DNA of 64,000 nucleotides, from positions 17,220 to 81,219 of the IMG/VR virus record IMGVR_UViG_3300042560_001229; one strand, written 5' to 3'. Source of the DNA: a virus. Below are positions 3,402-53,037 of the stretch, piece by piece; the stretch's first letter is position 1; every line of letters begins with the position of its first letter. Made by a program: the position numbers and the translations under genes. The notes under the pieces were generated by a model. It did not search any database. It was not told the origin of the DNA and was given only the letters and a program-made list of their open reading frames with translations.

Positions 3402-3995
3402 ATGAGCAACGCCCTAGAAGATCAGATCGTCGAAGGGCACACGGACTTCCACAACCCGCATGATCTTATCTGGCCGCAGATCGAACCGCACCTTGGCTAT
3501 CGTCTGCTGAACACGGACGAGGTAGGCGAACTGCATCCCCAACTTGAGGAAGTGGAGGCGTGGCTGGTCACGGTAGATAAGTGGGCTACTGGCTATTGGG
3601 GACAGGATAGAGGGCTTACCTATCGCACCAAGATGACCCGCGCAGAGTTACGGAAAGCCAGAGGACTGCCGCCCGAGCCGAAACCAAGGCGCAGGCACAA
3701 TCCCGACAACGTGACCGATGACCAAGTTGGGGCAGGCTACCGACTGCTGGATGACGATGAGGTAGGGCCGGAGTTTGACCGGAACAGGGGCTTGGGTGTG
3801 GAGCGGTGGCATCCTCACGATAAGGAGTGGCTGAATGGGTATAGTGGTGGCTCAAAGAGCATTACTTACCGCACAAGCATGACGCGCAATGAACTGCGTC
3901 AGGCTCGCGGCCTGCAACCCGAAGCCGAGCCTCTCTACCCATCTGCTGCACCTGAGCCTGTCCGAGCAAAGAGATTGCGGAGACTGGAGTTTTAG
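3402..3995 (+). CDS. Protein with two tandem GYRLL-domain repeats and C-terminal RLRRLEF
   Basis: Internal repeat NP..GYRLL..DEVG..W..GY..TYRT.MTR.ELR.ARGL.PE. Confidence 0.8.
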   Translation: MSNALEDQIVEGHTDFHNPHDLIWPQIEPHLGYRLLNTDEVGELHPQLEEVEAWLVTVDKWATGYWGQDRGLTYRTKMTRAELRKARGLPPEPKPRRRHNPDNVTDDQVGAGYRLLDDDEVGPEFDRNRGLGVERWHPHDKEWLNGYSGGSKSITYRTSMTRNELRQARGLQPEAEPLYPSAAPEPVRAKRLRRLEF

Positions 3996-4012
3996 CCCAA
4001 CCTGCTGACCTT

Positions 4013-4282
4013 ATGAAAATCGAACACTTGCTTGAAGCCATTACCGAAACCGCCCGCGAATACGAAGGTCAGGGAGCCAGCGGGCAGAGAATATGTGAAG
4101 CCCTGCGCGGTGTGGTCGCAAGGGCCGGACGTTACGCCGCCAAAGACCCCGACACGGAGGTTGCCCTGCCCGAGCACGAACTGCGGGCGATGATTCGTGA
4201 CGAGATTGCCAAGATGGTCATGCCCTTGGCGCTGGTGGAGAACCCGCCCGAAATTCTCCAACCCGAGGATGCGGAGAGATGA
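4013..4282 (+). CDS. Hypothetical protein
   Basis: ORF in operon context. Confidence 0.6.
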   Translation: MKIEHLLEAITETAREYEGQGASGQRICEALRGVVARAGRYAAKDPDTEVALPEHELRAMIRDEIAKMVMPLALVENPPEILQPEDAER

Positions 4283-4324
4283 ATCGCAGTTGACAGGAGA
4301 AAGTTGCCCGCCTAGTTGTGGCGC

Positions 4325-4693
4325 ATGGCCAACGAACTTACGCTCAGACTGCAAGCCTCGATCTTGTCTGGAAATCTCCAGAGCGAGTTTCCTCAGCAGA
4401 TCATCCGTCCCAACGTGGCGGCACAGGAGCAGAATGGCGGGGTGTTCTCGCTTACGACTTCCGAGACTGACCTGACGCTGACCGGCATCACCACACCGGG
4501 CTGGCTGATCTTGAAGAATCTCGACACCACGAATTTCCTGACATGGGGGCCGAAGTCTGGCGGTTCGATGATTCTCTGCGGAAAGATTCTGGCCGGGGAG
4601 TTTGCCATCTTCCGGCTCGGCGCTGCGGTGACAATGCGGATGAAGGCGGATACGGCCACGGTCAAGGTGCAGTGGTGGGTCGTTGGCACCTAA
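4325..4693 (+). CDS. Small beta-rich putative virion protein, paralog of 16124-16480
   Basis: MANELT..WLILKNLDTTNF..KILAGEF matches MANEIT..WMFVKNLDSTNF..KLLPGEF. Confidence 0.7.
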   Translation: MANELTLRLQASILSGNLQSEFPQQIIRPNVAAQEQNGGVFSLTTSETDLTLTGITTPGWLILKNLDTTNFLTWGPKSGGSMILCGKILAGEFAIFRLGAAVTMRMKADTATVKVQWWVVGT

Positions 4694-4800
4694 GCCCAAG
4701 GCGGTTCCTCACCCAAACCCCCACCCTCGGGGTCTGACGATTCTCAGGGCATCCTCAGCGATTCTGCTGATGGATTCCCCACCTTCCCCAAGGTGGTTTG

Positions 4801-4892
4801 CCTCTTATGGGCCAACTATTTTGCAACTGTTGCAAAATATCTGTTGACGACGAATCGGTTTAGGCCCATATTGGTGGCATATGAAATCCACC
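4801..4892 (+). promoter_or_regulatory. Early-type promoter cassette
   Basis: Palindrome, TTGACG 4844-4849 then ACGAATC, CATATT 4867-4872, ATGAAATCCACC at 4881; near-copy at 63767-63858. Confidence 0.8.
4820..4836. repeat. 17-bp palindromic dispersed repeat
   Basis: TTTGCAACTGTTGCAAA. Confidence 0.95.
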
Positions 4893-5351
4893 TCATCCAA
4901 ACTCAAGACCGCAGCCGTCACGCAGGCTGCACCCGTCCTCACCAAAGCCGAGCGTTTCGCCCGAGGCTTGGAGCATCTGTCTTACCAGCTTACCGCTGAC
5001 GTTGAAGACGCCAAGACGCTGAAAGCCAAGTTCATCGCTGACCTTGAAAAAGGTGACGCGACCTACCGCATTACGTGGAATGCCACTGAACTGGTGAAGG
5101 CCGAGTTCAAGGCGAGCTTCGCCTTTGGTGTTCTGGAAGATGCCAAGCGCAAAGGTGAGCAGTTGTCGGTGACACTGGCCAGCCATGTGGCCTCGCTGGG
5201 TGAGGCTATCCTCCGCAATCGGTTCATCGAATCCTCTACCAGTCCGATGAGCAACGCGGTGGCGATGGCCAAGCACGAAGCCGCCTGCCACACGCAGGAG
5301 CGGTATGCGGGAGTGGTGCGGCACTTCGTCAACGTGGCCGCTCAGTCCTAA
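4881..5351 (+). CDS. Hypothetical early protein (MKST start)
   Basis: ORF begins at the cassette ATG. Confidence 0.8.
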   Translation: MKSTSSKLKTAAVTQAAPVLTKAERFARGLEHLSYQLTADVEDAKTLKAKFIADLEKGDATYRITWNATELVKAEFKASFAFGVLEDAKRKGEQLSVTLASHVASLGEAILRNRFIESSTSPMSNAVAMAKHEAACHTQERYAGVVRHFVNVAAQS

Positions 5352-5527
5352 CCGAACACGAACATGACTTTGAACATCACGTATAAGAACGGAAAGGTGC
5401 AGACGATTGAGCGCGTCACGGACATCAAGGAGCGCGAGCGCGACGGCGGTGTGGTGATTATCTACTACGGCGACTGCGGCTTCCAGAAAACGGAGAAGAA
5501 GCATATCACCAATATGGAGGTGACGCT

Positions 5528-5824
5528 GTGAGCCGCCTGCTCGAACTGCCCTCGGTCAAGGATTGGCCGGAACCGCGCCGGAGGAAGGCTGTGAACACGC
5601 TTCTCTACAAGCTGGGGTTCAACCAGTGGTATCAGTCCATCCCGACTACGGAGATTGCGGACATCCTCACCCGCTTCGGCTTTGATGCCTCGGTGATGGA
5701 GGGCATCTACACCGGCAGGGATGGGCGGATGCACGAACAGATCAAGGACAGCCGACTGTGGCTGACGATGACATGGCACGCGATGCCGAGTGGCCGCTAC
5801 GAAATCGTGGCTTATGTCAATTAA
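5528..5824 (+). CDS. Hypothetical protein
   Basis: ORF with GTG start overlapping an upstream stop. Confidence 0.65.
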   Translation: MSRLLELPSVKDWPEPRRRKAVNTLLYKLGFNQWYQSIPTTEIADILTRFGFDASVMEGIYTGRDGRMHEQIKDSRLWLTMTWHAMPSGRYEIVAYVN

Positions 5825-6085
5825 CACCTTCCCCGAAACAGGTGTGCTGCTGGACGCAATGCTTGCCGCTCTCGGCCCGCAGACTCCGACAGCAACCACC
5901 GATCAGATGTGCGACCGCATCATCGTTTCGCTGAGGATGCCTGACCGCATGAGTGGAGATTCCGAGTTCAAGACTCGGGTGTATCGGTTGCTGTGCCGAA
6001 TGAAGAAGCGCGGACTGTTCACCAGCACGAGGGAGTGGACTGGAAAAGGTTACGGCCCATTATGGAGGCTCGCGTAAATTAACTT

Positions 6086-6135
6086 TTGACAACGAATCGA
6101 ATCTGAGCCAAGCTACCTGTATTATGAAATCCACC
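6086..6135 (+). promoter_or_regulatory. Early-type promoter
   Basis: TTGACA-ACGAATC, CAAGCT after a 17-bp spacer, ATGAAATCCACC at 6124. Confidence 0.75.
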
Positions 6136-6420
6136 ACTAGTCCGAAGTCCAAGGCTGTCCGAGTTGGCAGCATTTTGTTTCACCCTCCCCGTATGGAGCG
6201 AAGGTTCCTGTTGTTCACCCTTACTGGTGAGCCTGTGTATCAGTATGGCTACACCGGCTACACGTTGGAGAAGAACGGGACACGTCAGCAGTCCACCAGC
6301 TATGGGGACGTTGGTGATGACCTGCGGCAGAGGCGCGCAGCCAAGGCCACGGCCAAGCTCGGAGTCCCCGTCGAATGGCGGGAGACGAAGCCAGTCGAAA
6401 TGATGGGGGTGTCGTTCTAA
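6124..6420 (+). CDS. Hypothetical early protein (MKST start)
   Basis: ORF begins at the cassette ATG. Confidence 0.7.
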   Translation: MKSTTSPKSKAVRVGSILFHPPRMERRFLLFTLTGEPVYQYGYTGYTLEKNGTRQQSTSYGDVGDDLRQRRAAKATAKLGVPVEWRETKPVEMMGVSF

Positions 6421-7430
6421 TGATTGCCCGCCCCATGCTGGCCGAGACGCTGGAGAATGTCGCAGACATCCAGTTCCCGGTGCTCGCCACCGATAAGATT
6501 GATGGTCGCCGCAACCTCCTACTCCCACCCACCGAAGCCGGGAAGATGAGCCGCTGTGCCAGCCGTTCGCTGAAAGGGTTGAAGAATGACTTCACGCGGG
6601 AGTGGCTGGAGAGCTACCTCCCACCCGGCTTGGATGGGGAGTTGGTGGTGCTGACGCCCGATGGCCGCGTGGACGAGTTTCACGTTATCTCGTCGGCGTT
6701 CACTAATGACGGTGAGCCTGACTTCCGCTTCATGGTGTTCGATGACTTCCGTGGCGGGTTGCAGGAGCCATATCTGGAGAGAATGAAACGGCTGGAGAAA
6801 TCCCGGCTCCCATCTGGCAGGGTTATCAAGCTGCTTCCCACCCTCATTGAGAACGAGGAGGAACTGGACGCCTTTGAAGCCGCTGCCCTTGCCCGAGGGA
6901 ATGAAGGGATTATGATTCGCACGCCCCACTCACCTTACAAGGAGGGACGCAGCACGGTGCGCGAAGGTTGGCTGCTCAAGATCAAACGGTTCAAGGATGC
7001 GGAGGGCACTATCGTCGGAACCGTGGAGGGGATGCACAATGCGAATGAGGCCACGATCAACGAAGTAGGGCGCACGCAGCGTTCCACTTCCAAGGAGGGC
7101 AAGATTGGCAAGGGCCGAGTTGGTGCGCTGGTGGTCAAGCCGCTGGAGTTTGGCCCTCCTACCAATGACGACTGGCTGTATGTGCAGCAGAACGCTCATC
7201 GGATGAAGGCGGCAGTGCAGAGCCACCCGTATCTGTTTATGATGGGCACCGGAGCCATCACCGTAGGCGGGAACAACGTCCCGTTGTCCGAAGCGCACAC
7301 GATGCACAGACGGGTGGTGAAGTATAAGTTCCAGCCCATCGGCGTGAAGGTGAAGCCGCGTTTCCCGCAATGCCTCGGCTACCGGGACGCTGATGATATG
7401 GATGGCGAACAGCAAGGGAGGCTGTTATGA
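6420..7430 (+). CDS. lig: ATP-dependent DNA ligase
   Basis: KIDG adenylation motif, LDGEL, FMVFDD, EGIMIR, LLKIK, RFP OB-fold end. Confidence 0.93.
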   Translation: MIARPMLAETLENVADIQFPVLATDKIDGRRNLLLPPTEAGKMSRCASRSLKGLKNDFTREWLESYLPPGLDGELVVLTPDGRVDEFHVISSAFTNDGEPDFRFMVFDDFRGGLQEPYLERMKRLEKSRLPSGRVIKLLPTLIENEEELDAFEAAALARGNEGIMIRTPHSPYKEGRSTVREGWLLKIKRFKDAEGTIVGTVEGMHNANEATINEVGRTQRSTSKEGKIGKGRVGALVVKPLEFGPPTNDDWLYVQQNAHRMKAAVQSHPYLFMMGTGAITVGGNNVPLSEAHTMHRRVVKYKFQPIGVKVKPRFPQCLGYRDADDMDGEQQGRLL

Positions 7431-7432
7431 CT

Positions 7433-7818
7433 TTGGTGGTCAGTAGTAGCAACATGGTGCCCACGCGAGATGCTGGGACAGGGCGGTGGAATCTTCGCCT
7501 CATAGAAACAAGCGCGCTACTGGCCACCATCACTTTCAGTAGCAATGCTGAGGCTGACGGGCTGGCAGTATCCAGCCGAGGGCTGACGGCGAAAGCCTAT
7601 GTAGCCTGCCATAATCCTATACGGCCCTCGCAAAGGTGCAGTGTAGGCAGTGCCCTCCGTGTGCGCTGTAAAAGGGTGCAAACCCAACGCGGCCCTTTCG
7701 GGGTAGATGGATGCGGGTTCGATTCCCGCACGCTCCAGTTACGGGGCGGCTCGGTGCTACAAGACCTGACGGTGACATGCCGCAAGCATACCGGGTTCGA
7801 CTCCCGGCTACTCCACCC
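7433..7818 (+). ncRNA. Putative structured ncRNA with two tRNA/tmRNA-like T-arm and acceptor modules
   Basis: Several stems with GCAA/GAAA/UUCG loops; T-arms GCGGG-TTCGATT-CCCGC (7713-7729) and CCGGG-TTCGACT-CCCGG (7791-7807), each followed by a 7-nt acceptor strand and A. Confidence 0.65.
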
Positions 7819-7820
7819 CT

Positions 7821-7837
7821 TTTGAAACTGTTGCAAA
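7821..7837. repeat. 17-bp palindromic dispersed repeat
   Basis: TTTGAAACTGTTGCAAA. Confidence 0.95.
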
Positions 7838-7844
7838 CTGACTT

Positions 7845-8213
7845 ATGCCCGTAACGATTGTTGGTGTAACAGCCGGGGCGGTCATCACTTTCCTCTCCAC
7901 GGTGCAGAGGGAGGGTGAGCCTCGGCTGTATCGGGTGCGGTTGACCGTAATTGCGTTTGGTCAGACGGAACCTGACAAGGTGCTCGCACTGGCGGATGGC
8001 TTCATGTTTGGGGATGAGCAACTGATTCGAGTCGGCCCGAGACGCCTCCTACCGGAGCGTGTGAAGTCCAGAAACACTGACTTTGCCTCGGTGCTTTCCA
8101 ACTACATGCGGCTGGATGACATTGACGATGAATTGTCCTTGCCAGAATCCGCCCGCCAGTGGTATCGTCGCCAAGCAGTGAAACCCCGTAAAAGAAACCT
8201 CGAAATCCTATGA
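7845..8213 (+). CDS. Hypothetical protein with C-terminal RKRNLEIL
   Basis: ORF overlaps the groES start. Confidence 0.7.
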   Translation: MPVTIVGVTAGAVITFLSTVQREGEPRLYRVRLTVIAFGQTEPDKVLALADGFMFGDEQLIRVGPRRLLPERVKSRNTDFASVLSNYMRLDDIDDELSLPESARQWYRRQAVKPRKRNLEIL

Positions 8214-8476: not shown

Positions 8477-8553
8477 AGAATCCGCTTGCGTTCATTCCTG
8501 AGTGCGGATATGGCGTTGCTGCAATTCAGTAACCAACCAATCAAAAACGCATT

Positions 8554-9354: not shown

Positions 9355-9358
9355 GCCG

Positions 9359-10152: not shown

Positions 10153-10210
10153 GACGTTTTGGCTTGCCTCCGGGGTCGGATGGCTTAACAGTCGCGCAAA
10201 CCGCACTCCG

Positions 10211-11515: not shown

Positions 11516-11518
11516 GCT

Positions 11519-35850: not shown

Positions 35851-36473
35851 ATCCGATTCTCGAAATGTCCAAGCAAGTTGCCTGCCCCAAGTGCGGCGGA
35901 ATCATGGGCAGGATTACCGGAGCGGAGAAGCAGGGCGACCGTAGTGAAGTAGCCTGCCCGCACTGTGGGTGGAGTGGAACAGCGGAAGTCGTCTCGGAGC
36001 GGCTGGAGGTTTTCGAGTGGGGCTTTGACGGCGGTGCCCGCACGGTCATCTGGAACGTGGCCAAGATGCGCCGCTTCCTACTCAAGCACGCGGAGAAGAT
36101 TCCCGTCCATGAAGTGCCGTGGATGCTGGCCGAGAAATGGCTGGAGATGAACGACTTCTCCCCTACCGATGCTGACCCACCATCCGTGGCTGGGGACACG
36201 CCGCTGATCGTCATTGAGCATCCCTCGGCCATCGCGGAAGTCCGCGAGCATTTTGGACTCCTGCCCATTGATGGCTGGCACCGGATGTTCGACGCGGTAA
36301 AGGCGAAGCGAAACCTGCGGGCGTGGATTTGCAAGACCGCGCTGGAGCAGAAGTTTCGGATGCTGGACATCGTGCATGTGGACAACGGCGAGGGTGCTTT
36401 TGCGACGGAGACGCCCACGAACACGCAACTGGAAACGTGGGACAGGCAGGAACCCATTCTGCACCGACCATGA
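35847..36473 (+). CDS. Zn-ribbon plus ParB/Srx-like domain protein
   Basis: CPKC..CPHC; PLIVI..LPIDGWHRM. Confidence 0.6.
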   Translation: MNPILEMSKQVACPKCGGIMGRITGAEKQGDRSEVACPHCGWSGTAEVVSERLEVFEWGFDGGARTVIWNVAKMRRFLLKHAEKIPVHEVPWMLAEKWLEMNDFSPTDADPPSVAGDTPLIVIEHPSAIAEVREHFGLLPIDGWHRMFDAVKAKRNLRAWICKTALEQKFRMLDIVHVDNGEGAFATETPTNTQLETWDRQEPILHRP

Positions 36474-36742
36474 GCAACTACGTTTCCCGAGCATGGCTGC
36501 AATCCGTGGCCGCAGAGTTCCGCATTCAGATGAGCGGGCTGGAGACGAAGAAGGAACTGACCGCAGCGCGGAAGATCATGGAGTCCTTCATGGCCTGCTG
36601 CTCTTGGCGGAATCCACGGTTCAGTAAGGAGAAGTTTCGAGAGGCGTCCGATTATGATCGCCCTCCGGTCAAGCGAAAGCGCACCCGGCGACCCTCCACC
36701 ATTACTCAAGATCGCAAGCCCCGGCGCATTCTGGAAATTTGA
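36470..36742 (+). CDS. Hypothetical protein with C-terminal RKPRRILEI
   Basis: ATGA overlap; NPRFSKEKF. Confidence 0.65.
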   Translation: MSNYVSRAWLQSVAAEFRIQMSGLETKKELTAARKIMESFMACCSWRNPRFSKEKFREASDYDRPPVKRKRTRRPSTITQDRKPRRILEI

Positions 36743-36819: not shown

Positions 36820-37275
36820 ATGCCTTACCGACCTAACGCCCACAATCCAAGTAACGTCCCGCTGGAGCACTGGCAGCAACCCGGCTGGCGGCTGATGGAC
36901 GCCGATGAAGTCGGGAGTCAGTTCACCACCCCGCTGCCCTTCACCCATCGCTGGAGTTCTCTCCGACAAAAATGGATGCGGCGTCGTCACAAGACCGAAA
37001 TGTGGACAGCCTCCTCTCGGAATAACTCGTATCTCACGAAGCTGTCCCGCAACCGCATCCGCGCCCTGCGTGGTCTGCCCCGCGAGCACTTCCCACCGGA
37101 TGTGCCGCCACGCCCCAGCACGTCCCTTGCACACTTGACCATCCCTGCGCCGACGATAGTGCCACCGCATACTCCACCATCGCCAGCGTTTCCGCATGTG
37201 CCTACGCCTGCGCCTCCACCGGAACCCGAGCCACCACTGCAACGCCGGAAACGCATCCGCAAGCTGGAGTGGTAA
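36820..37275 (+). CDS. GYRLL-family protein with Pro-rich linker and C-terminal RIRKLEW
   Basis: NPSNV..GWRLMDADEVG..LRGLP is similar to 3402-3995. Confidence 0.7.
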   Translation: MPYRPNAHNPSNVPLEHWQQPGWRLMDADEVGSQFTTPLPFTHRWSSLRQKWMRRRHKTEMWTASSRNNSYLTKLSRNRIRALRGLPREHFPPDVPPRPSTSLAHLTIPAPTIVPPHTPPSPAFPHVPTPAPPPEPEPPLQRRKRIRKLEW

Positions 37276-37283: not shown

Positions 37284-37324
37284 TTGACTACAAATCAGTA
37301 ACCTAGTAAGTTGTCCACCTTATG
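37284..37324 (+). promoter_or_regulatory. Early-type promoter
   Basis: TTGACT-ACAAATC, TAAGTT after a 17-bp spacer, ATG at 37322. Confidence 0.7.
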
Positions 37325-38044
37325 AGCAGACCATCCATCCAAACCAAGAAAGGCTACGATATGTTTGAAGTATCGTCAGCATTGCAGAAGTCCATCCGCC
37401 GAGGCATGGAGAAAGAAGCCCTGTATTGGGCGCACGAGTTGGTGCAGTCCAACTACCATAACTACCTTTGGAAGCGGCTGGCCATCGTCGCGGTGGAGGA
37501 CATCGGCCCTGCCGACCCTGATGCCATCGTGCGGGTCATGGCCATGAAGCAGGCGTTTTACGACGAGAAGGAGAACAAGGGTGGTGGCACCCTGTTTTAC
37601 GTGTCGGCGGTGATGCTGATGTGCCGTTCGCACAAGTCGCGCCTGTGGGATTGGGCAACGTGCAGCATGCTGGCTTCCCACAATCGTCGGGCCGAGGACA
37701 TTCCCGACTTCGCCATTGATAAGCACACGCGCAGGGGCAAGATGATGGGTAGGGGACGCGATCACTTTTTGAAGGAGGGCACCAAGCTGCATCCTCACAA
37801 GACCCAACCCGGCGAGGAGGAGTTGAAGCAGGAAACCATGCTGCTGTGGGATGACAAGTCCGAGGCCGAGCACGCCGCCCTTCCTCACAATCACAAAGAT
37901 CGCGCCAAGGGTTCGGTGCCCACCGACTCTGATGAAGGAGTCACCGGACGCTTCCCTATCGGGGCGTCTGATGAAGGCCCAAGGGTGCGGACGAAGAAAC
38001 GCCGCCGCACCGCCGCCGAGGCTGAACTGGACTTCGGCAAATGA
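37322..38044 (+). CDS. RarA/MgsA C-terminal-domain-like protein (no AAA domain)
   Basis: SALQKSIRRG..ALYWA..WKRL..VEDIGPAD..IPDFAIDKHT. Confidence 0.8.
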   Translation: MSRPSIQTKKGYDMFEVSSALQKSIRRGMEKEALYWAHELVQSNYHNYLWKRLAIVAVEDIGPADPDAIVRVMAMKQAFYDEKENKGGGTLFYVSAVMLMCRSHKSRLWDWATCSMLASHNRRAEDIPDFAIDKHTRRGKMMGRGRDHFLKEGTKLHPHKTQPGEEELKQETMLLWDDKSEAEHAALPHNHKDRAKGSVPTDSDEGVTGRFPIGASDEGPRVRTKKRRRTAAEAELDFGK

Positions 38045-38613
38045 ACCAGACGCCGTGGGTCATCCGCACCGTGGCCGTCAAGGCCACAACTTCTGAGCCG
38101 GTGCCCAAGGCCGACTGGCGCAAGGGCACGGTGCGGCGTTACTCTATGGTAGAGCCGGGTGAGTATAGCATTGTGGAGAAACCCGGCCTCGTCCATCGCA
38201 GCGGTTGGTTCGGCATTGTGAAGGGAGAGAACACGCTAACCCATATCCCTACCGGGAGGGGTTTGAACATTGGCCACCGGCTGAACCATGAGCAGTGCAA
38301 ACGATACGGGGAATGGCTGGCTGAGTTGGAGCCGAATGAGGCGTTCTGGAACCGGAACATGGAGAGTTGGGATGATGAGAAGATAGGCAGGCGCAAACGT
38401 CCCTTTCGTAAGACGCTGACTGACTACCTGTATTGGCTGACCACCGATGACCCCTGCTGTGAGCCAGCAGCCTGTGAGTTCTGCCAAGGCACCGGAGCCG
38501 CTGGCGAGTGGAGCACGAATGTATTTGGCGAATGGGTATGGCAGTGCGTTGGTGTCCCATGCTCACTCTGCAACGGATTGGGTGTAACTCCGGCACACAA
38601 TGAGGGTCTTTAG
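38041..38613 (+). CDS. Hypothetical protein with C-terminal CxxCxGxG zinc motifs
   Basis: CEFCQGTG..CSLCNGLG. Confidence 0.6.
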   Translation: MNQTPWVIRTVAVKATTSEPVPKADWRKGTVRRYSMVEPGEYSIVEKPGLVHRSGWFGIVKGENTLTHIPTGRGLNIGHRLNHEQCKRYGEWLAELEPNEAFWNRNMESWDDEKIGRRKRPFRKTLTDYLYWLTTDDPCCEPAACEFCQGTGAAGEWSTNVFGEWVWQCVGVPCSLCNGLGVTPAHNEGL

Positions 38614-39329: not shown

Positions 39330-40958
39330 ATGAGCAAACCGCAGATTACATCGGCTCGACAGAGCTACATTGACCAGCTTGACCTGCTCTCGGCAGCAGC
39401 CGTGGGTGTCGTGCTGACTCGCACCCGCGAACCGCACCGGGCCGAGGAAGCCATCAAGGAGTGGACGTTCACGAAGAAGCGTTCCTTCAAAAGCTGGAAC
39501 GCCGTGCGCGGCTGGAAGGAGTCCAAGCCCGACATGCGTGCCACCGTGCCCCCGCCTGACAAGGTGACGGACTTCTACCTCGCCCTCCAGAAGATCGCTG
39601 ATGTCGCCGGGAACGGTGCCGCAGCGTGGCAGGACATCACGCTTGTCGCCCACTACCCGCATTGGAATCTGGCCAAGTCTCCGGCGCAGATGCAGTTGCT
39701 CAAGGAATACAGCCGCGACTTCACGGAGACGAAGCAACGGCTCGTCCTGCTCGTGCCCGAGGCATTCGTCCTCCCGCCCGAGTTGCAGAACGACATCGCC
39801 GTGCTCGACTTCGGCCTCCCCTACCGGGACGAGTTGCGCGAGATTTACGATAACGTGATGGATGCGTCCAAGGAAGTCAGCGGGCACTCGGCACCCTATA
39901 ACGAGGACGAGATTGGCACGCTGCTCGGTTCCGGTGCGGGCATGACCGAGGCCGAGTTTGAAATGGCTCTGAGCAAGGCGATTCTCACCCATAAGGAGAA
40001 GTGGCCGAAGGTGCCGGTGAAGGACATGAACCGGGTGCTGCTCGAAGCGAAGACCGATGTGGTCAAGCGTTCGGAGATTCTCGAACTCATGGACATCGTG
40101 GATATGAAGGAAGTCGGCGGTCTGGACTTGGCGAAGGATTGGATTGCCAAGCGCAAGCGTTGCTTCACTCAGGAGGCCACCGACTTCGGAGTTGACCGTC
40201 CCAAGGGCATCGCCGCCATCGGGCCTCCCGGCACCGGCAAGAGCCTGTTCGCCAAGGCACTGGCTGGCCTGCTCTCAGTCCCTCTTATCAAGTTCGATGT
40301 GAGCAAGGTGTTCGGCTCGCTGGTGGGGCAGACGGAGACGAAAACGCATTCCGCCCTCATGCAATGCGATGCGATGGCCCCATGCGTGGTGCTCATTGAC
40401 GAAGTGGATAAGGCGGGCATTGACCCGAGGCAGGGCGGCGGTGACTCCGGCACCAGCAAACGGGTCATCGGGAAAATCCTGACGCACATGCAGGAGAGCA
40501 AAGCACCGATCTTTTGGGTGCTCACTGCCAACCGCGTGGATGGGCTTCCGCCCGAGTTGCTCCGCAAGGGACGACTGGACGAAGTGTTCGCCATTCTTCC
40601 GCCGAACAAGGTGGAGCGCATGGAAATCGTTAAGATTCACCTTCGCAAGCGCAAGCAAGACCCGAGCAAGATGAAGGACTTGTCCTTGGTCGTGGACGCC
40701 AGCGAGGGCTTCGTCTCTGCGGAACTGGAAGGTGCCGTCAAGGACGCTGTGATTGAGGCGTTCACGGAGGGCACGGAAGTCACCGGGGCCATGATCGCGG
40801 AACAGTTGAAGGGCATGAAGCCCATCAGCGTGGCCTTCGCCGACGACTTTAATGCGATGAAGGAGTGGGCTGCCAATAACGCACGCATGGCCAGCACGCA
40901 GGACGAAGTGGACGAGACTGTGCAATTCCGTCCCCGGCGTCGTAGGATGGAGCAGTAA
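39330..40958 (+). CDS. Ycf46-like AAA+ ATPase
   Basis: VGGLD.AK.W, GPPGTGKS, VLIDEVDK, TAN..LPPELLRKGRLDE, degenerate N-terminal AAA. Confidence 0.9.
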   Translation: MSKPQITSARQSYIDQLDLLSAAAVGVVLTRTREPHRAEEAIKEWTFTKKRSFKSWNAVRGWKESKPDMRATVPPPDKVTDFYLALQKIADVAGNGAAAWQDITLVAHYPHWNLAKSPAQMQLLKEYSRDFTETKQRLVLLVPEAFVLPPELQNDIAVLDFGLPYRDELREIYDNVMDASKEVSGHSAPYNEDEIGTLLGSGAGMTEAEFEMALSKAILTHKEKWPKVPVKDMNRVLLEAKTDVVKRSEILELMDIVDMKEVGGLDLAKDWIAKRKRCFTQEATDFGVDRPKGIAAIGPPGTGKSLFAKALAGLLSVPLIKFDVSKVFGSLVGQTETKTHSALMQCDAMAPCVVLIDEVDKAGIDPRQGGGDSGTSKRVIGKILTHMQESKAPIFWVLTANRVDGLPPELLRKGRLDEVFAILPPNKVERMEIVKIHLRKRKQDPSKMKDLSLVVDASEGFVSAELEGAVKDAVIEAFTEGTEVTGAMIAEQLKGMKPISVAFADDFNAMKEWAANNARMASTQDEVDETVQFRPRRRRMEQ

Positions 40959-41037: not shown

Positions 41038-41661
41038 ATGCCACTGATTAGCACGATGACCGGAAGCGAAACCGTAGCCGATGGCTTTGCCAAGGTGTTC
41101 GCCTTCCATGTAACCCGCGAGGCTGAGACTTTCATCGGCCAAGCAGCCAAGACGGGGGAGAAGGTTAGGGCGGTTGGCAGTCCCGTCAGGGAAAGCGCCG
41201 TGGCTGGCATCCGTCAGGAGATAGGAGGGTCTTGGGTGATGCAGTCGTTCGAGGTTGAGGACGATGAAATCATCAAGGTGTTTGCCCAGCGCAGGAACGC
41301 ATGGAACAAGCTGATCGTGGCCGCGCAGCTTCTCCTGCTATGCCGCACCACCGGCCCGCTGACCCGCATCACCATCCCTCTACTCAACCGTCCCGGCAAG
41401 AGCCGGTTCACGGAGGCGGTGATGCAGGGCCGGTTTGAAGTCGTCACCCCGCAGGAGGCGTTTGAGCGACATGGCATCACCGTCCCGCCGCACTTCATGC
41501 GGTTCTACCATCCGAGTTCGCAGCAGTCGGTGTTCAACGTCACGCAAGTCGAAGCGGCCAGTTCGGTGAAGCAGAAGATCGTGGCCACCATCACCAAGGC
41601 CGATGACGGAGCCACCGTGGTTGTCCGTTCGGTGAAACGTCGGAGGGCATTCGAGCTATGA
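41038..41661 (+). CDS. Hypothetical protein with C-terminal KRRRAFEL
   Basis: AAGGAG upstream; ORF. Confidence 0.7.
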   Translation: MPLISTMTGSETVADGFAKVFAFHVTREAETFIGQAAKTGEKVRAVGSPVRESAVAGIRQEIGGSWVMQSFEVEDDEIIKVFAQRRNAWNKLIVAAQLLLLCRTTGPLTRITIPLLNRPGKSRFTEAVMQGRFEVVTPQEAFERHGITVPPHFMRFYHPSSQQSVFNVTQVEAASSVKQKIVATITKADDGATVVVRSVKRRRAFEL

Positions 41662-42742: not shown

Positions 42743-43183
42743 ATGAGTAAAACGACCACCATTAACAAAGTCCCGATTCGGGACATCGCCGCCCTGCATT
42801 CCGCAGCGACGGACTTGAAGAACGCCGGAGTGAATTGCTCCCTCGTTGCCAACACCGGATGCCGCCTCTGGTATTCGGAGCAGCAGTGCGCCTACGTGCT
42901 CAAGCTGCCTGACTGCCAGTTCGACCTTGGCATCGTCAAGAACGGGGATGGCACCTATTCCACCGTGACCGATCTGCACGCCGGTTTGGTGTCCCGGCAG
43001 ATTGGGCAGACCGCCCCGCCGTCCTGTGGCTTCACGCCCGAGGAGTTGGCCATCGGCAAGTTCATGCAGGAGTATGGCAAGCACGCCGCCATCAATGCCG
43101 CAATGGAGGCAGGCCACCAAGTAAGCGGCTGCTACCTTGACGAGCAAGGCGAGTATCAGTTGGAACTCGAAGTCACCCTCTAA
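42743..43183 (+). CDS. DUF1257/Ycf35-like protein
   Basis: IRDIAAL..FDLGIVKNGDGTY..D..GKFMQEY..AMEAGHQV. Confidence 0.7.
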   Translation: MSKTTTINKVPIRDIAALHSAATDLKNAGVNCSLVANTGCRLWYSEQQCAYVLKLPDCQFDLGIVKNGDGTYSTVTDLHAGLVSRQIGQTAPPSCGFTPEELAIGKFMQEYGKHAAINAAMEAGHQVSGCYLDEQGEYQLELEVTL

Positions 43184-43215: not shown

Positions 43216-43413
43216 ATGCCGAAAATCCGAGTCACCATCAATAAAGTCGGGGGAGTCAAAGCCGAGGGCGAAGGGTTCGTCCAAGGCCAGTGCCATACGA
43301 GCATGGCTCCCATCCTCTCCGTGTTCAGCGGAGGCACCGGAATCCAAACGTCCGAGGAGAAGCCGGACTTGAACGTGCTGGACGAAGGCGAGCACGAGCA
43401 CATCGCCCTCTAG
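43216..43413 (+). CDS. DUF2997-like protein
   Basis: IRVTI..GGVKAEGEGF..GQC..EEKPD. Confidence 0.65.
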   Translation: MPKIRVTINKVGGVKAEGEGFVQGQCHTSMAPILSVFSGGTGIQTSEEKPDLNVLDEGEHEHIAL

Positions 43414-43416
43414 GTC

Positions 43417-43788
43417 ATGGGAAAGCAACTCATTACCATTGGCGTAGGCGGGTCGTTGACCGGCCTGCAAATGAAGAAAGGCGCGGGGCTGGACTTACGG
43501 AAGTTCGGCCCCGCCGCCATCGTCCGCTCGACCGAAATCGAATGGGACGAGGAACAGCAAAAGTGGTTCGTCCACTTTCTCCAAGGGCAGCGCAAGGACA
43601 CCGTGCTGACGCGCACTGACTTCCATGAGTATGTCGTCCCTCCTATCCACCAGACGGTAGGGGAGGCCAAGCTGAACGGATGGAAGTGGCAGGATGCCAT
43701 GCTCTACTCGGATTACGAGGATGCCGTCGCCGCCGAAGTCGCCGCCATTCAAGCCATGCGGAAGAAGCATGGGAAGGAGTTCGTATGA
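43417..43788 (+). CDS. Conserved protein of the AAA/DUF1257/DUF2997 module
   Basis: LDLRKFG..IVRSTEIEW..W..YEDAVAAEV. Confidence 0.6.
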   Translation: MGKQLITIGVGGSLTGLQMKKGAGLDLRKFGPAAIVRSTEIEWDEEQQKWFVHFLQGQRKDTVLTRTDFHEYVVPPIHQTVGEAKLNGWKWQDAMLYSDYEDAVAAEVAAIQAMRKKHGKEFV

Positions 43789-45413: not shown

Positions 45414-45423
45414 GAAACCATGT

Positions 45424-45489: not shown

Positions 45490-45555
45490 TATAACAAGAA
45501 GGACTGCAAGCATCACCGACAAGAACTGCTCGCGCAGACGCGAGGTAGGAGGGCT

Positions 45556-46811: not shown

Positions 46812-46812
46812 C

Positions 46813-47361
46813 ATGGCGGAACTGATTCCACTACCCAAAGGCGTGCCGCCTCATAGTGTGCAGATGACCCCTGATGCACTTGCCGCCTTACCCGAAGGTT
46901 ATCGTCTGCTATCCAAGCTGGAGGCTGAACGAGTTCCGGCCAACGCGCTGTGCTGGGGCAGGGCCAAGCTGAACCATGTGGCGGAAATGGGCTGGTATCC
47001 CACCCGCCGCGCCGGGAAGACAGCGACGGTGCTTACTTACATCGTGCCAGTGGCCAATGACACATGGGAAGAACCCGTTGCCGCCGTAGCGTTCAACCCG
47101 CTGCCCGAAGGTGCCACTCTGCCGAGAGGTTACAGGCTGCTGCAAAAGGACGAGGCGAGGAAGCTGCCGAAGGGTGCCATGTTTTTTTACGAAGCTACCG
47201 GAACATGGGGTCACTCGAATGAGTGTGGCGGGGATGTTACGGACAATATCAATCTGTGCTACTGCGTGCCAAGTAACGGAGTGCCCACGGTGTCCATTGC
47301 GGGAGTTGCAACAGTTGCAATCCCACCCAAGAAACGGATGCGGAGGCTGGAGTTCACATGA
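46813..47361 (+). CDS. GYRLL-repeat protein with C-terminal RMRRLEFT
   Basis: LPEGYRLL..YIVP and LPRGYRLL..YCVP. Confidence 0.7.
   Translation: MAELIPLPKGVPPHSVQMTPDALAALPEGYRLLSKLEAERVPANALCWGRAKLNHVAEMGWYPTRRAGKTATVLTYIVPVANDTWEEPVAAVAFNPLPEGATLPRGYRLLQKDEARKLPKGAMFFYEATGTWGHSNECGGDVTDNINLCYCVPSNGVPTVSIAGVATVAIPPKKRMRRLEFT
47305..47321. repeat. 17-bp palindromic dispersed repeat (intragenic)
   Basis: GTTGCAACAGTTGCAAT. Confidence 0.85.
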
Positions 47362-47648
47362 ATAAGCGCATGAGGCTGCTGGAGTTTTACCCTCAGCCCG
47401 ATCATATCTACGGCATCGTCTGCCACCCATCGGCGGCGCAGGTGTTGCGGGAGGGTTACAGCAAGCTGCCCGCCATTCCCAAGCTGATGGGCTTGACGGG
47501 CGATCTTCCTCCTATCATTGAGGACGCGAACATTGACCCGCAACAGTCACAGATTTACACCGGGCAAGCCGCATGGCAGGCCCGCGTCGAGCAGGAGCGC
47601 AGGAAGACGATGCGCGAAACCATTCACCAAGAATTGAACTACCCATGA
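47358..47648 (+). CDS. Hypothetical protein with N-terminal KRMRLLEF
   Basis: ATGA overlaps at both ends. Confidence 0.6.
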   Translation: MNKRMRLLEFYPQPDHIYGIVCHPSAAQVLREGYSKLPAIPKLMGLTGDLPPIIEDANIDPQQSQIYTGQAAWQARVEQERRKTMRETIHQELNYP

Positions 47649-48889: not shown

Positions 48890-48892
48890 TGA

Positions 48893-48932
48893 TTGACCAC
48901 GAAACTGTAACCACCTATGCTGCGCGCCAATG
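48893..48932 (+). promoter_or_regulatory. Early-type promoter (leaderless polymerase)
   Basis: TTGACC-ACGAAAC, TATGCT after a 17-bp spacer, ATG at 48930. Confidence 0.72.
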
Positions 48933-51836
48933 AGTAAGACCCTGCTGGATTTTGAAACTGACCATTTGAACTGTGATGGGAACCCCGACGCGCAGATTAT
49001 CGTGGTGTGCGACACGCCCTCGCAGGGCACCTTCGATGCCGGTCAGGTCATGGGCAAAAAGGCGATGGAAATTTTCGGTGAGCAGGCCAAGGCGTGCGGG
49101 CTGACCAAGCAGGACTTCTTTTTCGTGACATGCTCCCCACCCATCCCCGAGGAGCACAGCAATACCGAGGGTCGCATCAATAAGTTCGTTGACCAGTTTC
49201 GGACTGAGTTGCTGGGCACGTTGCAACAGTTGCAAAATGGCAGGCTGCTGCTTGCACTTGGCAAGACAGCGGCGAGGATGGTCATGGGTAAGCCGGTGCA
49301 GATAACCAAGGTGCGCGGCCAGTTTGACAGCGTGGAGGGAATCCCATGCACGGTCATGCCCATGCTCTCCCCTACCAATGTTCTTCGCAGACCGGAGGTA
49401 GCCGAGACGTTCAACACTGACTTTCGGCAGGTGCGCGTGCTCAAGGACTACGGCTGGGATGTGGAGGCGTTCGCCGGAGCCAAGGACAGCGGAAAGTATC
49501 AGTGGGTGACGGATTTGCAGTTCCTACTGGACAACCCACCATCCGCGCTCGCTCTGGATACGGAGACAGATGGGCTGAATTGGATGAACGGTGCCAAGCC
49601 CATTCTGGCTTCGCTCTGCTGGCGCAGTGGCACGGAGAAGGTGGACATGGACAAGGGTGGCAAGAAGTTGCGTGCGCTGGAGATGGGTCAGAGAGATGAG
49701 CCGGTGGCGATCTGCGTGCCTCTGGACATTCGTTACTGGCCCGAGCTAGGGGAAGCTGGCATCGCCAAGTTGCATGGTCAGCTTCGGCAACTGCTGGCCA
49801 ACCCCAAGGTGCATGTGGTCGGTCACAATCTGAAATTCGACATCCATTGCCTCCGCAATATCGGCGTGCGGGTGGCCAACTGGTATTCGGACTCCATGCA
49901 ACTGCTGTTCGCGCTGGACGAGAATATGTTCTCCAAGACCCTCGCGGACGGCGTGCGGAGATACGTCCCCGAACTGGCCTCCTACTCGGATGCCTTCGAC
50001 CGCGAGATTGATAAGAGCAAGATGCTGGAAGTGCCAAGAGCCAAGATGCTGGCCTATGCCGGTGGTGATGCCGAGGCGTCTTACCTGCTGAACAAACGGC
50101 TGATAGATTTGGTGAAGGAGGACAAGCGGCAGTGGGACACTTTCCGGCATATTCAGATGCCCGCGCTGCGTATGTTCGTGAACGTCGAGAAGCAGGGCAT
50201 CCATATTGACCAGCCGGAGTTGGCCAAGTTGGAGCATACGCTTGGTGAGCGGGAGCGAGAACTGTATCGCTCGCTGATTCTGCGGGTGCCTGCGGAAATC
50301 AAAAAACGGCACTTGGACAAAGGGCTGTCCTTTACCCGCGATGAGTTCGTGCGGGACATCCTGTTCACCAAGGATGGGTTCGATTTCACGCCGGTTGTCT
50401 TCACGGACTCCACGAAGAACCTGTCCAAGAACGAGCGGGTGCCAAGCACGAGCAGCAAGCAGCACCTTCCCTACTTCAACCATGAGCCGTTCGTGCAAGA
50501 CCTGATTCAGTATCAGAAGCTCGCCAAGATGCGCTCCACCTATGTCGGCAAGGCCAGCGTGCTGGAGACTGACCGCATCGTGACACTCAAGAACGGCAAG
50601 CTGCCCAAGAAGGTGACTGACGATTTAGCCAAGTCTGGCATCACCATTGAGGGCAGTGCGGTGACGTTGCATGGCATACGGGTTCGCCCCCGGTTGCGTG
50701 CGCTGGACTTCGGCAACAAGCCGCTGGACTACACCCATCGCTTGCAGATGGCGGATGGTCGCTGGCTGGTGGTGTCCAAGAATGGGTCGCTGTTCAGTCA
50801 GACGCTCAGTGATGCCTCCGGCTTCTGGAAATACCTGTGCGACGATGGCTGCATCCATCCGAGTTTCCTGCTGCATCGCACCAACACCGGCAGGACAAGT
50901 TCCGCCAACCCGAACGCACAAAACTTCCCCAAGCGTGGCCCGTTGGCCAAGGAGTATCGCAAGATTTTCGTGCCGACGCCAGGGTTCGCTTTCTTGGAAG
51001 CCGATCTGTCTCAGGCCGAGTTGCGGATTGCGGCGTGGATGGCCAACGAGACGACGATGCTTCGCATTTACCGGGAGGGTGGGGACATCCATGAGGCCAC
51101 GGCTGCGGCGGTGCTTGGCATCAAGGTGACTGAGTTCCGCAAGTTCAAGAACAACGCGCAGGGGGTTCCATCCCGTTTTCGTAGTGGCAGCTTCTCCGGC
51201 TCCACGCTGGCTGAGTATTACGATTACATGCGGTTCTTGGCCAAGGCCGTGAATTTCGGTTTCCTCTACGGCATGGGCTGGCGCAAGTTCAAGGAATACG
51301 CCAAGACGGACTTCGGCATCGAACTGACCGATGAGGAGGCGGTGGTCATGCGGAAGGCGTTCTTCGCCCTCTACCCGAGGCTGGAGACATGGCACAAGCG
51401 GATGCGGGCCTTTGCCAACGAGCATGGCTACGTCCGCGCTCTGCACGGTGCGCTGCGGAGACTCCCATCCATCTACTCCGACGACGAAGGGGTAAAGGGC
51501 GAGTGCGAGCGGCAGGCGATCAACGCCCCGGTGCAACGCTTCGCTTCCGATCTTGGACTGCTGGGCATGATTGGCTTTGTGGAGAACTGCCCGCTGGAGG
51601 ACATTCGCCCGGTGGCCTTCATTCACGACTCGGCGGTGCTGGAGGTTCGCATTGCCCGCATTCGGGAAGCGGCGGCTGGCATCAAGTGGCACATGCAAAA
51701 TCAGCCCTTGGAGGAACTGTTCGGCATCACCCCACCCATCCCCATCGTGTCCGATGTCTCGCTGGCGGAAATCAGCCTGTCCAAGTCCGAGGCACTGGAT
51801 GTGGAGGCCGTGGTGCCCAACTGGACGGTTTTGTAG
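48930..51836 (+). CDS. polA: Family A DNA polymerase with N-terminal UDG-like domain and 3'-5' exonuclease
   Basis: ALDTET, GHNLKFD, YAGGD; TGRTSS..QN.P, ADLSQAELR, RFLAKAVNFGFLYG, IHDS. Confidence 0.95.
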   Translation: MSKTLLDFETDHLNCDGNPDAQIIVVCDTPSQGTFDAGQVMGKKAMEIFGEQAKACGLTKQDFFFVTCSPPIPEEHSNTEGRINKFVDQFRTELLGTLQQLQNGRLLLALGKTAARMVMGKPVQITKVRGQFDSVEGIPCTVMPMLSPTNVLRRPEVAETFNTDFRQVRVLKDYGWDVEAFAGAKDSGKYQWVTDLQFLLDNPPSALALDTETDGLNWMNGAKPILASLCWRSGTEKVDMDKGGKKLRALEMGQRDEPVAICVPLDIRYWPELGEAGIAKLHGQLRQLLANPKVHVVGHNLKFDIHCLRNIGVRVANWYSDSMQLLFALDENMFSKTLADGVRRYVPELASYSDAFDREIDKSKMLEVPRAKMLAYAGGDAEASYLLNKRLIDLVKEDKRQWDTFRHIQMPALRMFVNVEKQGIHIDQPELAKLEHTLGERERELYRSLILRVPAEIKKRHLDKGLSFTRDEFVRDILFTKDGFDFTPVVFTDSTKNLSKNERVPSTSSKQHLPYFNHEPFVQDLIQYQKLAKMRSTYVGKASVLETDRIVTLKNGKLPKKVTDDLAKSGITIEGSAVTLHGIRVRPRLRALDFGNKPLDYTHRLQMADGRWLVVSKNGSLFSQTLSDASGFWKYLCDDGCIHPSFLLHRTNTGRTSSANPNAQNFPKRGPLAKEYRKIFVPTPGFAFLEADLSQAELRIAAWMANETTMLRIYREGGDIHEATAAAVLGIKVTEFRKFKNNAQGVPSRFRSGSFSGSTLAEYYDYMRFLAKAVNFGFLYGMGWRKFKEYAKTDFGIELTDEEAVVMRKAFFALYPRLETWHKRMRAFANEHGYVRALHGALRRLPSIYSDDEGVKGECERQAINAPVQRFASDLGLLGMIGFVENCPLEDIRPVAFIHDSAVLEVRIARIREAAAGIKWHMQNQPLEELFGITPPIPIVSDVSLAEISLSKSEALDVEAVVPNWTVL
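49220..49236. repeat. 17-bp palindromic dispersed repeat (intragenic)
   Basis: GTTGCAACAGTTGCAAA. Confidence 0.9.
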
Positions 51837-51840
51837 GCCC

Positions 51841-51920
51841 AAACTATTTTTGCAACAGTTGCAAATTCTTTTTGACAACGAATCAATTCTGAGCCAGTTT
51901 TGGGCCTTATGAAATCCACC
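51841..51920 (+). promoter_or_regulatory. Early-type promoter cassette
   Basis: Palindrome 51849-51865, TTGACA-ACGAATC 51872, CAGTTT, ATGAAATCCACC 51909. Confidence 0.8.
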
Positions 51921-52145
51921 ATTCACGGCCCCGCTTCCATTCCCGGCAACACCGCGTTTCCGCTCACCCAGCTAAACGACACCCAGCGCGAGGAGCGCAT
52001 CGCGCTCGAAAACGCCCGCTACGCTTCCGAACTCGAAGCGGCCATCACCGCCCACTTCAACGCGGGCATCATCGTTACGCCCGCCGACTACAACGCCATG
52101 CTCGCCGTGTGGCGTCAGGGTGGCCTCCTATCCGATCTGGAGTAA
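51909..52145 (+). CDS. Hypothetical early protein (MKST start)
   Basis: Begins at the cassette ATG. Confidence 0.7.
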   Translation: MKSTIHGPASIPGNTAFPLTQLNDTQREERIALENARYASELEAAITAHFNAGIIVTPADYNAMLAVWRQGGLLSDLE

Positions 52146-52571
52146 ATGCAAACCTTCCTTCCCTATCCCAACTTCGCGCAAAGCGCGGCTTGCCTTGACT
52201 GGCAACGACTAGGCAAACAACGTGTCGAAGCGAAGCAGATATACCTCGCGTTGACCACGCCATCCTACGGCTGGCAGAACCACCCAGCGGTGAAGATGTG
52301 GCGACATTGGGAAATCTCCCTCGCAACTTACGGCGAAATCATCTGTCTTGAATGGCGTAAGCGTGGTTACAACGACACGCTGCTCCCTTGGTTTCAAGAA
52401 CGCTCCGCACTACGCCCGGACTTGCAGCCTTGTCCACCACAATTCGATACTGCATTTTGCACGTCCCACAGATCAAACTTGCTTCGCAAACTCCCATCCC
52501 ACTACCGCCCACTCTGGCCCGATGTGCCCAACAACCTGCCATACATCTGGCCGGTCATTCATTCCGTTTGA
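52146..52571 (+). CDS. Pyrimidine-dimer DNA glycosylase-like protein (MSMEG_6728/DenV-like)
   Basis: MQTFLPY..LD..RLGKQRVE..HPAVKMW..SHRSNLLRK..YIWP. Confidence 0.85.
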   Translation: MQTFLPYPNFAQSAACLDWQRLGKQRVEAKQIYLALTTPSYGWQNHPAVKMWRHWEISLATYGEIICLEWRKRGYNDTLLPWFQERSALRPDLQPCPPQFDTAFCTSHRSNLLRKLPSHYRPLWPDVPNNLPYIWPVIHSV

Positions 52572-52608
52572 CAACGAATCAGTAACGTATTAGTCTTTCA
52601 CCATTATG
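52568..52608 (+). promoter_or_regulatory. Early-type promoter
   Basis: TTGACA-ACGAATC, TAGTCT, ATG at 52606. Confidence 0.75.
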
Positions 52609-53037
52609 AAAACCCGCACCCGCAGAAAACTCGACATGCCGACCCCCGAAGCTGACCTTGCTTACGCCAAGATTACGGAGTTGGCCATCACCACGTTCGT
52701 TGAGAACAAGTTGCAGAACGAACATAAGCGCAAATATGACAAGTCCCGCAAGGAGTTGCTCGGTCAGATGAAGGACTCTGGCAAGTCCACCCATCGTGCT
52801 GAGTATCGTGACGAGGACGGCAAGAGCATCATGCTGGTGGCCGAAATATCCACCCCGACCGGACAGGCCGTGGATGTGACCAAACTCCAGAAGCTCGTCA
52901 CGGAGAAGCAGTTCCTCGCCATCGTGGAAGCCTCGCAGAAGGCTGTCACGGACATCGTGGGCACCGCCACCCTCGCGCAGTGCCTCGTCCCCACCATCGG
53001 CACCGAGAACGTCAGCGTGAAGGTCGCCAAACTTTGA
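52606..53037 (+). CDS. Hypothetical protein (N-terminal RTRRKLDM)
   Basis: Begins at the promoter ATG. Confidence 0.7.
   Translation: MKTRTRRKLDMPTPEADLAYAKITELAITTFVENKLQNEHKRKYDKSRKELLGQMKDSGKSTHRAEYRDEDGKSIMLVAEISTPTGQAVDVTKLQKLVTEKQFLAIVEASQKAVTDIVGTATLAQCLVPTIGTENVSVKVAKL

Follow-up and report, generated by a model that had tools for sequence, protein, structure and literature searches.

A short arginine-rich tag at the ends of many proteins of a tailed phage, linked by conservation to a Cdc48-like ATPase module

In eukaryotes, p97 and proteasome biology depends centrally on short docking peptides by which many proteins are addressed to a single AAA+ machine. Proteasome activators carry docking tails such as the HbYX of PAN, Rpt and Cdc48 and the GQYL of Mpa and Bpa, and HslU has a C-terminal tail of its own; in these systems a short C-terminal peptide, borne by an AAA+ ring and by unrelated proteins, plugs into the pockets of one partner. 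ClpX-type signals, including the basic C-terminal signal of MuA and the SspB tail, combine basic and hydrophobic residues in a terminal peptide that follows a flexible linker and tethers its bearer to an AAA+ machine. Cofactors of p97/Cdc48 carry the VCP-binding motif (VBM), with the consensus EhRRRRLxhh (PMC5389986). Here we describe a terminal peptide tag in a 64,000-nucleotide (nt) window of viral DNA, bases 17220–81219 of a virus record that consists of one contig of 81,219 bp (IMGVR_UViG_3300042560_001229); positions below are those of the window unless marked as genome positions. The analysis shows that the tag is real and terminal, that selection acts on it as a peptide, that orthologues keep it and that conservation links it to an AAA+ ATPase and to the protein encoded next to it.

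The tag consists of a run of Arg followed by Leu, Ile or Met, then Asp or Glu, then a hydrophobic residue, and at least a dozen proteins carry it, each at one end. Translation reproduced, at its coordinates, every one of the ten peptides listed by an earlier note made from this DNA. The C-terminal copies, all on the plus strand and assigned to open reading frames (ORFs) called in the present analysis, are RAKRLRRLEF (3963–3992; score 11.0 on the matrix described below) on a protein of 197 amino acids (aa) with two GYRLL..DE repeats (3402–3995), KPRKRNLEIL (8181–8210) on a 122-aa protein (7845–8213), RKPRRILEI (36713–36739; score 13.9) on an ORF that ends at 36742 and whose uncertain start lies at 36323 at the earliest, RKRIRKLEW (37246–37272) on a 151-aa protein in which a GYRLL-type domain is followed by a Pro-rich linker (36820–37275), RPRRRRMEQ (40929–40955) on the AAA+ ATPase (39330–40958), VKRRRAFEL (41632–41658) on the protein encoded after it, hereafter the partner protein (41038–41661), and KKRMRRLEFT (47329–47358) on a 182-aa protein with two GYRLL-type repeats (46813–47361). 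N-terminal copies, likewise on the plus strand, are MKTRTRRKLDM (52606–52638), which opens a 143-aa ORF (52606–53037), and MNKRMRLLEF (47358–47387; score 11.0), which opens a putative 96-aa ORF, called from the sequence (47358–47648), for which no homologue was found. An internal plus-strand copy, RVRPRLRALDF (50679–50711), lies in an insertion (50559–50810) in DNA polymerase I (PolA; 48930–51836). A split variant, in which RVRTKKRRR is followed by a six-residue spacer, LDF and GK (37982–38041, plus strand), closes an MgsA_C-like protein (37322–38044) and was recognised by eye, without a score. Pro-rich stretches stand ahead of most tags, and the last 15 residues of the ATPase (528–542) are disordered in its AlphaFold2 model, with a predicted local distance difference test score (pLDDT) below 50, in line with the Pro-rich or disordered linker described by the earlier note. 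Two of the copies stand only 32 nt apart in different frames and span a gene boundary (47329–47387), reading KRMRRLEF-stop and M-N-KRMRLLEF; this pair may be a trace of the copying of a tag onto the adjoining gene.

The tag is far more frequent at protein ends than in shuffled termini, the comparison by which the earlier note had proposed to judge it. A loose C-terminal regular expression ([RK][RKNA].?[LIMF][ED][FIWLQ], at most two residues from the end), applied to all ORFs of at least 40 aa in the whole genome, matched 10 of 342 plus-strand ORFs versus none of 421 on the minus strand; seven of the ten were already in the earlier note, and the other three, which are strict C-terminal tags too, fall outside the window on its upstream side, at genome 847–1293, 3826–4560 and 6810–7433. 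Shuffling, repeated 2000 times, left on average 0.10 matches if entire proteins were permuted, 0.14 if only the final 30 residues were and 0.19 if only the final 12 were; the highest count in any shuffle was 4, compared with the 10 observed. An observed count so far above shuffles of the tails themselves indicates that the order of the residues is non-random, beyond what tail composition gives. Since the expression had been fitted post hoc, we built an independent scoring matrix from the C-terminal octapeptides of 150 metagenomic homologues of the partner protein. At 8 bits or more it matched 9 of 139 C-termini versus 0.2–0.56 in shuffles, and its 15 top matches among approximately 25,000 proteome positions included 10 at C-termini, two at N-termini (47358 and 52606) and one nine residues from a C-terminus. 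A near-terminal copy was also seen upstream of the window in the ORF at genome 11078–11617. A matrix drawn from the homologues of one tagged protein alone thus picks up the remaining tagged proteins. In the control phages D3, L5, 16-3 and Bcep781, which have a similar GC content and lack the ATPase, none of 358 ORFs had such a C-terminus.

The signal acts at the level of the peptide. Across the tags all six Arg codons, several Leu, Ile, Met and Phe codons and both Glu codons are used, and the motif is kept as protein in distant homologues, which bears out the earlier note's view that it is conserved as a peptide. The tag could instead be a by-product of DNA signals at gene ends, such as Shine-Dalgarno sequences or promoters, or of chance composition; a Shine-Dalgarno origin was suspected because CTG GAG contains GGAG. 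Within the tag, a purine run (GGAG or AGGAG) is suitably spaced to act as the ribosome-binding site of the next gene in three of the ten cases at most, all of them cases in which that gene and the stop codon overlap, and a Shine-Dalgarno origin was rejected for fitting only these. None of the other seven is at ribosome-binding distance from the next start: in six of them that start lies 16–820 nt past the stop codon, and the tag at 8213 overlaps the next start yet lacks a Shine-Dalgarno-like run. With no matches among antisense ORFs and only about 0.1–0.2 in shuffles, an artefact at the DNA level is effectively excluded.

Conservation in relatives, a further check proposed in the earlier note, gave the same picture. 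The closest whole genome found, IMGVR_UViG_3300044611_002115 (hereafter G001; 77.5 kb, complete), encodes an ATPase 66% identical to that of the present phage. Among 52 ORFs with a G001 homologue, three C-terminally tagged families (the ATPase, the partner protein and the family of 7845–8213) are tagged in both phages, and there is no pair in which only one member is tagged. The G001 orthologue of 7845–8213, at 36% identity, ends in KRKHRRIEV; the BLAST alignment of this family covers the core only, so the tag has been kept though the linker diverged. The N-terminal tag of 52606–53037 is retained in four homologues, that of G001 and two metagenomic ones (56–74% identity) among them, the homologues starting with MKTRTRTKNRNLDG, MSNTRTRTKNRNLEL and MPATSKTPVRTRTRKIDA, and the variants found in this family are TRTRRKLD, TRTRKID, TRTRTKNRNLD and TRTRTKNRNLE. 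Seven carriers of the present phage have no homologue in G001, which in turn has two tagged ORFans of its own, ending in RRRRLEL and RGRRLEL. As old carriers keep the tag and each phage has tagged ORFans, the tag is stable on old carriers and has been gained repeatedly by new ones. In the more distant Rhizobium phage L338C, whose ATPase is 49% identical, a related form, R[RK]..LD, occurs on five to eight proteins, and an N-terminal EVRTR.R form is present too, with RecA among the carriers.

The copy in PolA is likewise kept in G001. It lies, as the earlier note had held, within an insertion, a segment of about 85 residues (approximately residues 544–627) between the exonuclease and polymerase domains that is missing from the five related PolA proteins of L338C, Aeromonas phage HJ05, Rhodobacter phage RcMenchie, Pseudomonas phage SM1 and Agrobacterium phage JP1. 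Only G001 has the insertion in common with the present phage; its tag site reads GVRARTRRRVLEF, and R-x-R-x-R-x-R-x-L-[DE]-F forms the best-conserved island of an insertion that is otherwise poorly conserved between the two. We also observed that the L338C polymerase is annotated as two genes and that the HJ05 PolA match is split over ORFs 58825–61002 and 61689–62285.

The tagged ATPase (39330–40958, plus strand; 542 aa) matches PF00004 at residues 297–421 (E = 2e-27) and belongs to phrog_8638, a family of unknown function. Its AlphaFold2 model (pLDDT 86) aligns in Foldseek over its full length to the D1–D2 tandem of p97, Cdc48, Drg1 and NVL, with E values of about 1e-22 to 1e-23; the alignments to p97/Cdc48 chains span 546–582 columns, with an E of 4e-23 for the match to p97/Cdc48/Drg1. 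D1 is degenerate, with no Pfam AAA match in residues 1–285, and D2 is classed as active. Since the double ring is matched over the full length, this is a Cdc48-like ATPase whose first ring is degenerate and which lacks an N domain. With its classical AAA domain and tandem D1–D2, the modelled protein is a Cdc48/p97-like type II AAA+ ATPase. All of 25 metagenomic homologues, found with the N-terminal half as query, end in an Arg run that comes after a linker of acidic or polar residues, and most of the tails add [LI][DE] after that run (RRRSLD, RRRKLD, RRKLD, RRRALD), with up to about 10 residues past the motif; R536 is conserved in at least 90% of homologues.

Tag conservation is strongest of all families in the 207-aa, beta-rich partner protein encoded after the ATPase (41038–41661, plus strand). 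An exhaustive HMMER search gave 259 cluster representatives, and among the best 150 of these the tail reads V-x-V-x-x-x-[RK]-[RK]-R-R-x-[LI]-[DE]-[LIVF]-end, with the consensus RRRR-x-L-D-L. Of these 150, 97 have R at −5, 86 L or I at −3, 72 D or E at −2 and 92 L, I, V or F at −1; R203 is almost invariant. The AlphaFold2 model is very confident (pLDDT 96), and against the PDB it gave no Foldseek match at E ≤ 0.001 and a best Z of 5.0 in a wide fold search; a PDB sequence search returned no match for either the partner family or DUF1257. The model does match a Pseudomonas phage SM1 protein, A0A0U3ECN5 (TM-score approximately 0.8), which, judged by its size of 201 aa, is the ORF annotated right after the SM1 ATPase. 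Longer members of the partner family, examined for a fused reader domain, yielded only one weak, sub-threshold PolA-like fragment.

Further along the plus strand, the locus encodes a DUF1257 (Ycf35-like) protein (42743–43183; PF06868 at 23.9 bits against a cut-off of 22.2) and two small proteins of 65 aa and 123 aa (43216–43788), all three without a tag and all three candidate readers of it. The 123-aa protein is phrog_38408; the 65-aa protein (43216–43413) has no Pfam match and, by eye and position, resembles the 72-aa ORF that follows DUF1257 in L338C. The gene order of this module is repeated in L338C, HJ05, RcMenchie, SM1 and JP1. In the present phage the tag is the local version of a tail signature that belongs to this conserved module.

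The carriers are diverse, and the earlier note's description of them as unrelated proteins holds only in part. All-against-all BLAST showed 3402–3995 to be homologous to 36820–37275 (E = 9e-11) and 46813–47361 to genome 6810–7433 (E = 1e-5), and these four proteins have one or two copies of a domain of approximately 80 residues with the pattern G-Y/W-R-L-L..D-E; this family has no Pfam or PHROGs match and no homologue found outside this genome, a homologue search with the GYRLL-repeat protein having returned that protein alone. The other carriers, namely genome 847–1293, genome 3826–4560, 7845–8213, the ORF ending at 36742, the ATPase and the partner protein, show no mutual similarity beyond the tag. 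Pfam and PHROGs gave no annotation for nine of the ten strict carriers, and a protein atlas search gave no result. Most carriers are encoded in the replication region.

Among described systems, the VBM and VIM motifs of p97 cofactors stand close to the tag, each being an Arg-run motif followed by Leu and hydrophobic residues that occurs on unrelated proteins and addresses them to a Cdc48-type double-ring ATPase. The phage motif accompanies the gene of a p97-like ATPase, and the VBM consensus is strikingly close: RRRR-x-L-D-L, RRLEF, RKLEW and RRILEI share with it the Arg run, the Leu and the hydrophobic residue, whereas the leading Glu is missing and the register is shifted by one residue. The phage tag also differs in preferring an acidic residue after the Leu, and the likeness is one of sequence. 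Moreover, VBM and VIM bind the N-domain cleft of p97, while the phage ATPase is itself tagged; with no N domain beyond the D1–D2 alignment to provide an Nn–Nc cleft, the tag was not assigned to the VBM class. Assignment to the HbYX/GQYL tails was rejected as well: in place of their penultimate Tyr the phage tag has no Tyr in any copy, copies also occur at N-termini, internally and nine or more residues from the end, and residues follow the motif in ATPase homologues. Pfam and PHROGs scans, which covered part of the genome's genes, found no peptidase, of the 20S or HslV kind or other, among those of the module. The SspB and MuA signals are read by host ClpX; the phage tag co-varies with the lineage of the phage, and one of its positions is conserved as acidic. 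In gene content, with a PF00004 ATPase beside DUF1257 and a small protein, the module resembles the Ycf46 (AAA+), Ycf35 (DUF1257) and DUF2997 set of cyanobacteria and plastids; that set is cellular and without known function, whereas the 207-aa partner family was found in phage contexts only in these data. The literature searched held no mechanistic study of DUF1257/DUF2997, Ycf46/Ycf35 or the related phages. Docking motifs for AAA+ proteins are known as a kind, and a proteome-wide phage version was found in none of the papers searched, in agreement with the earlier note, which knew of no described phage tag of this sort.

On balance we lean towards reading the tag as a short linear docking or address motif that brings its carriers to one common site tied to the ATPase/DUF1257 module. 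A flexible, terminal decapeptide conserved position by position is the signature of a docking motif for one pocket, and the module is indicated because the tag is so strictly associated with the Cdc48-like ATPase and the adjacent gene. The tag would bind a protein pocket, and through it the ATPase, its neighbour, the DNA polymerase, the MgsA_C-like protein and about ten small lineage-specific proteins would be brought to a shared site. The reader would be encoded by the phage as part of the module, whether the ATPase ring, the untagged DUF1257 protein or the small partner proteins; since both ATPase and partner are tagged, the chance that a third component (DUF1257, a small protein or a host factor) reads the tag is no lower than for the ATPase. 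Docking could end in recruitment to a replication assembly, in remodelling or in turnover, and the presence of a tag in an inserted polymerase loop favours recruitment over degradation. More tentatively, the ATPase, the partner, DUF1257 and the small proteins could together form a phage protein-handling machine with its own peptide "postcode" to which any tail-bearing protein is delivered. Such a machine would take on new ORFans and, by way of an inserted loop, the replicative polymerase, and would correspond, in a virus, to the cofactor code of p97, organising or timing replication and take-over proteins.

Several observations count against this docking motif. No reader or binding partner of the tag was found. 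Of the earlier note's proposals, the short linear motif is supported as a conserved peptide in flexible tails, at both termini and in a polymerase loop, and the AAA/DUF1257 machine as a hub gains indirect support from the near-universal tail signature of the ATPase (25 of 25) and its neighbour (150 representatives). In the AlphaFold2 model the ATPase's own tail is undocked and disordered and gives no structural hint of a site, the N domain by which p97 reads VBM and VIM motifs is absent, and the presence of the tag on the ATPase as well as on its neighbour is easier to reconcile with a third protein as reader than with the ATPase in that role. In HJ05, RcMenchie, SM1 and JP1, furthermore, no more than one or two proteins score above the cut-off of the matrix, and the looser Arg-rich tails of these phages are statistically like those of control phages. 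Looser RxRxR "dialects" across the proteomes of such distant relatives were considered and dropped, as the count of basic tails fails to separate module phages from controls; we therefore claim no proteome-wide tag for these four phages.

A conserved host reader in place of a phage one would also undercut the module reading, and we consider it unlikely. The tag could then be read by the N domain of ClpX, by another AAA+ protease, as a degron or tether, or by the beta sliding clamp. Its terminal place in a flexible tail and its mixture of basic and hydrophobic residues would suit such a machine, its sites match those of clamp-binding motifs, which occur at N-termini, at C-termini and in polymerase loops, and conservation over 259 sequence clusters would suit a conserved host target. 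The motif, however, varies among related phages, being RRLE plus a hydrophobic residue here and in G001, R[RK]..LD in L338C and devoid of the acidic residue in HJ05, and as many carriers per genome shift form together, a co-evolving phage-encoded reader fits better. The tag lacks the Gln at the position that defines clamp motifs, and QL[SD]LF, which also has hydrophobic residues at positions 2, 4 and 5, is not matched, the corresponding positions being Arg in 97/150 and 75/150 members of the partner family; its acidic residue at −2 is unfavourable for ssrA-type recognition by ClpX; and a degron would be implausible inside the loop of a replicative polymerase. For a clamp, a replication compartment or a protease as the hub, all named in the earlier note, we found no positive evidence.

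Equally distinct from a protein pocket would be a nucleic acid, with the tails acting as arginine-rich motifs, like those of lambda N or Tat, that hold proteins on phage DNA or RNA hairpins. Arg runs and RxRxR patterns do recur, the polymerase and the MgsA_C-like protein are among the carriers, and a palindrome present in 22 copies in the genome, and common to G001 (30 copies) and L338C (12), offers a possible hairpin target. This explanation is nevertheless improbable: simple charge-driven binding would not be expected to conserve L/I at −3, a hydrophobic residue at −1 and, between them, D/E at −2, or to favour Arg so strongly over Lys at set positions; HJ05 has the module and Arg tails with no copy of the palindrome, and the spacing shows that tags are not placed near palindromes, for which reason a link between the two was rejected. 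Loading into the capsid, with the tag as a signal for virion packaging or ejection, is more remote still. Internal proteins of T4 and encapsulin cargo are known to carry targeting peptides at their ends, the carriers 3402–3995 and 7845–8213 are encoded between the terminase and portal genes, and the L338C portal protein has an Arg-rich tail; against this, the carriers of the replication region include a replicative polymerase and a 542-aa ATPase, and the motif is without any tie to capsid or scaffold genes.

The tag is a direct experimental handle on a widespread, uncharacterised set of phage genes, comprising the phrog_8638 ATPase and the 259-cluster partner family, on about ten otherwise unannotated ORFans, and on how new phage genes join an existing network just by picking up a tail of ten residues. 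Its reader, once found, would give the Ycf46/Ycf35-like gene set a function and could yield a portable tagging system.

The source virus is a tailed phage. Its record, rated complete, is bounded by direct terminal repeats; the GC content is 58%, and practically every gene lies on the plus strand. Among the genes with an annotation are those for DnaB, a primase-like protein, a helicase, a DenV-like glycosylase and PolA, which has UDG and exonuclease domains. No cultured phage was matched in a megablast of 17 kb, and scans of viral contigs with single proteins (the ATPase and P0002) brought up no close relative; a large alignment proved too divergent to be scanned for patterns, and a smaller one led to one relative, G001. 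Between the MgsA_C-like gene and the ATPase, a 190-aa ORF (38041–38613) ends with a CxxCxGxG pair, CEFCQGTG and CSLCNGLG, that resembles a DnaJ-type zinc finger.

The palindrome has the sequence TGCAAC-N-GTTGCA and lies both at gene junctions and within genes; window sites include 1237, 4822, 11797, 24980, 27400, 38725, 46133, 46774, 47307, 49222, 51851, 61019 and 62230, among others. Where it is translated it gives recurrent LLQLLQN strings at several ORF ends. A different kind of protein end was seen in 55196–56359 and 59820–60272, which have acidic Pro-Phe tips (..SNPFPED and ..DDNGDPF) like the C-terminal tips of the SSB type; their G001 orthologues likewise end in ..GEPFGED and ..QEPDPF, and L338C has a typical ..DDNIPF end.

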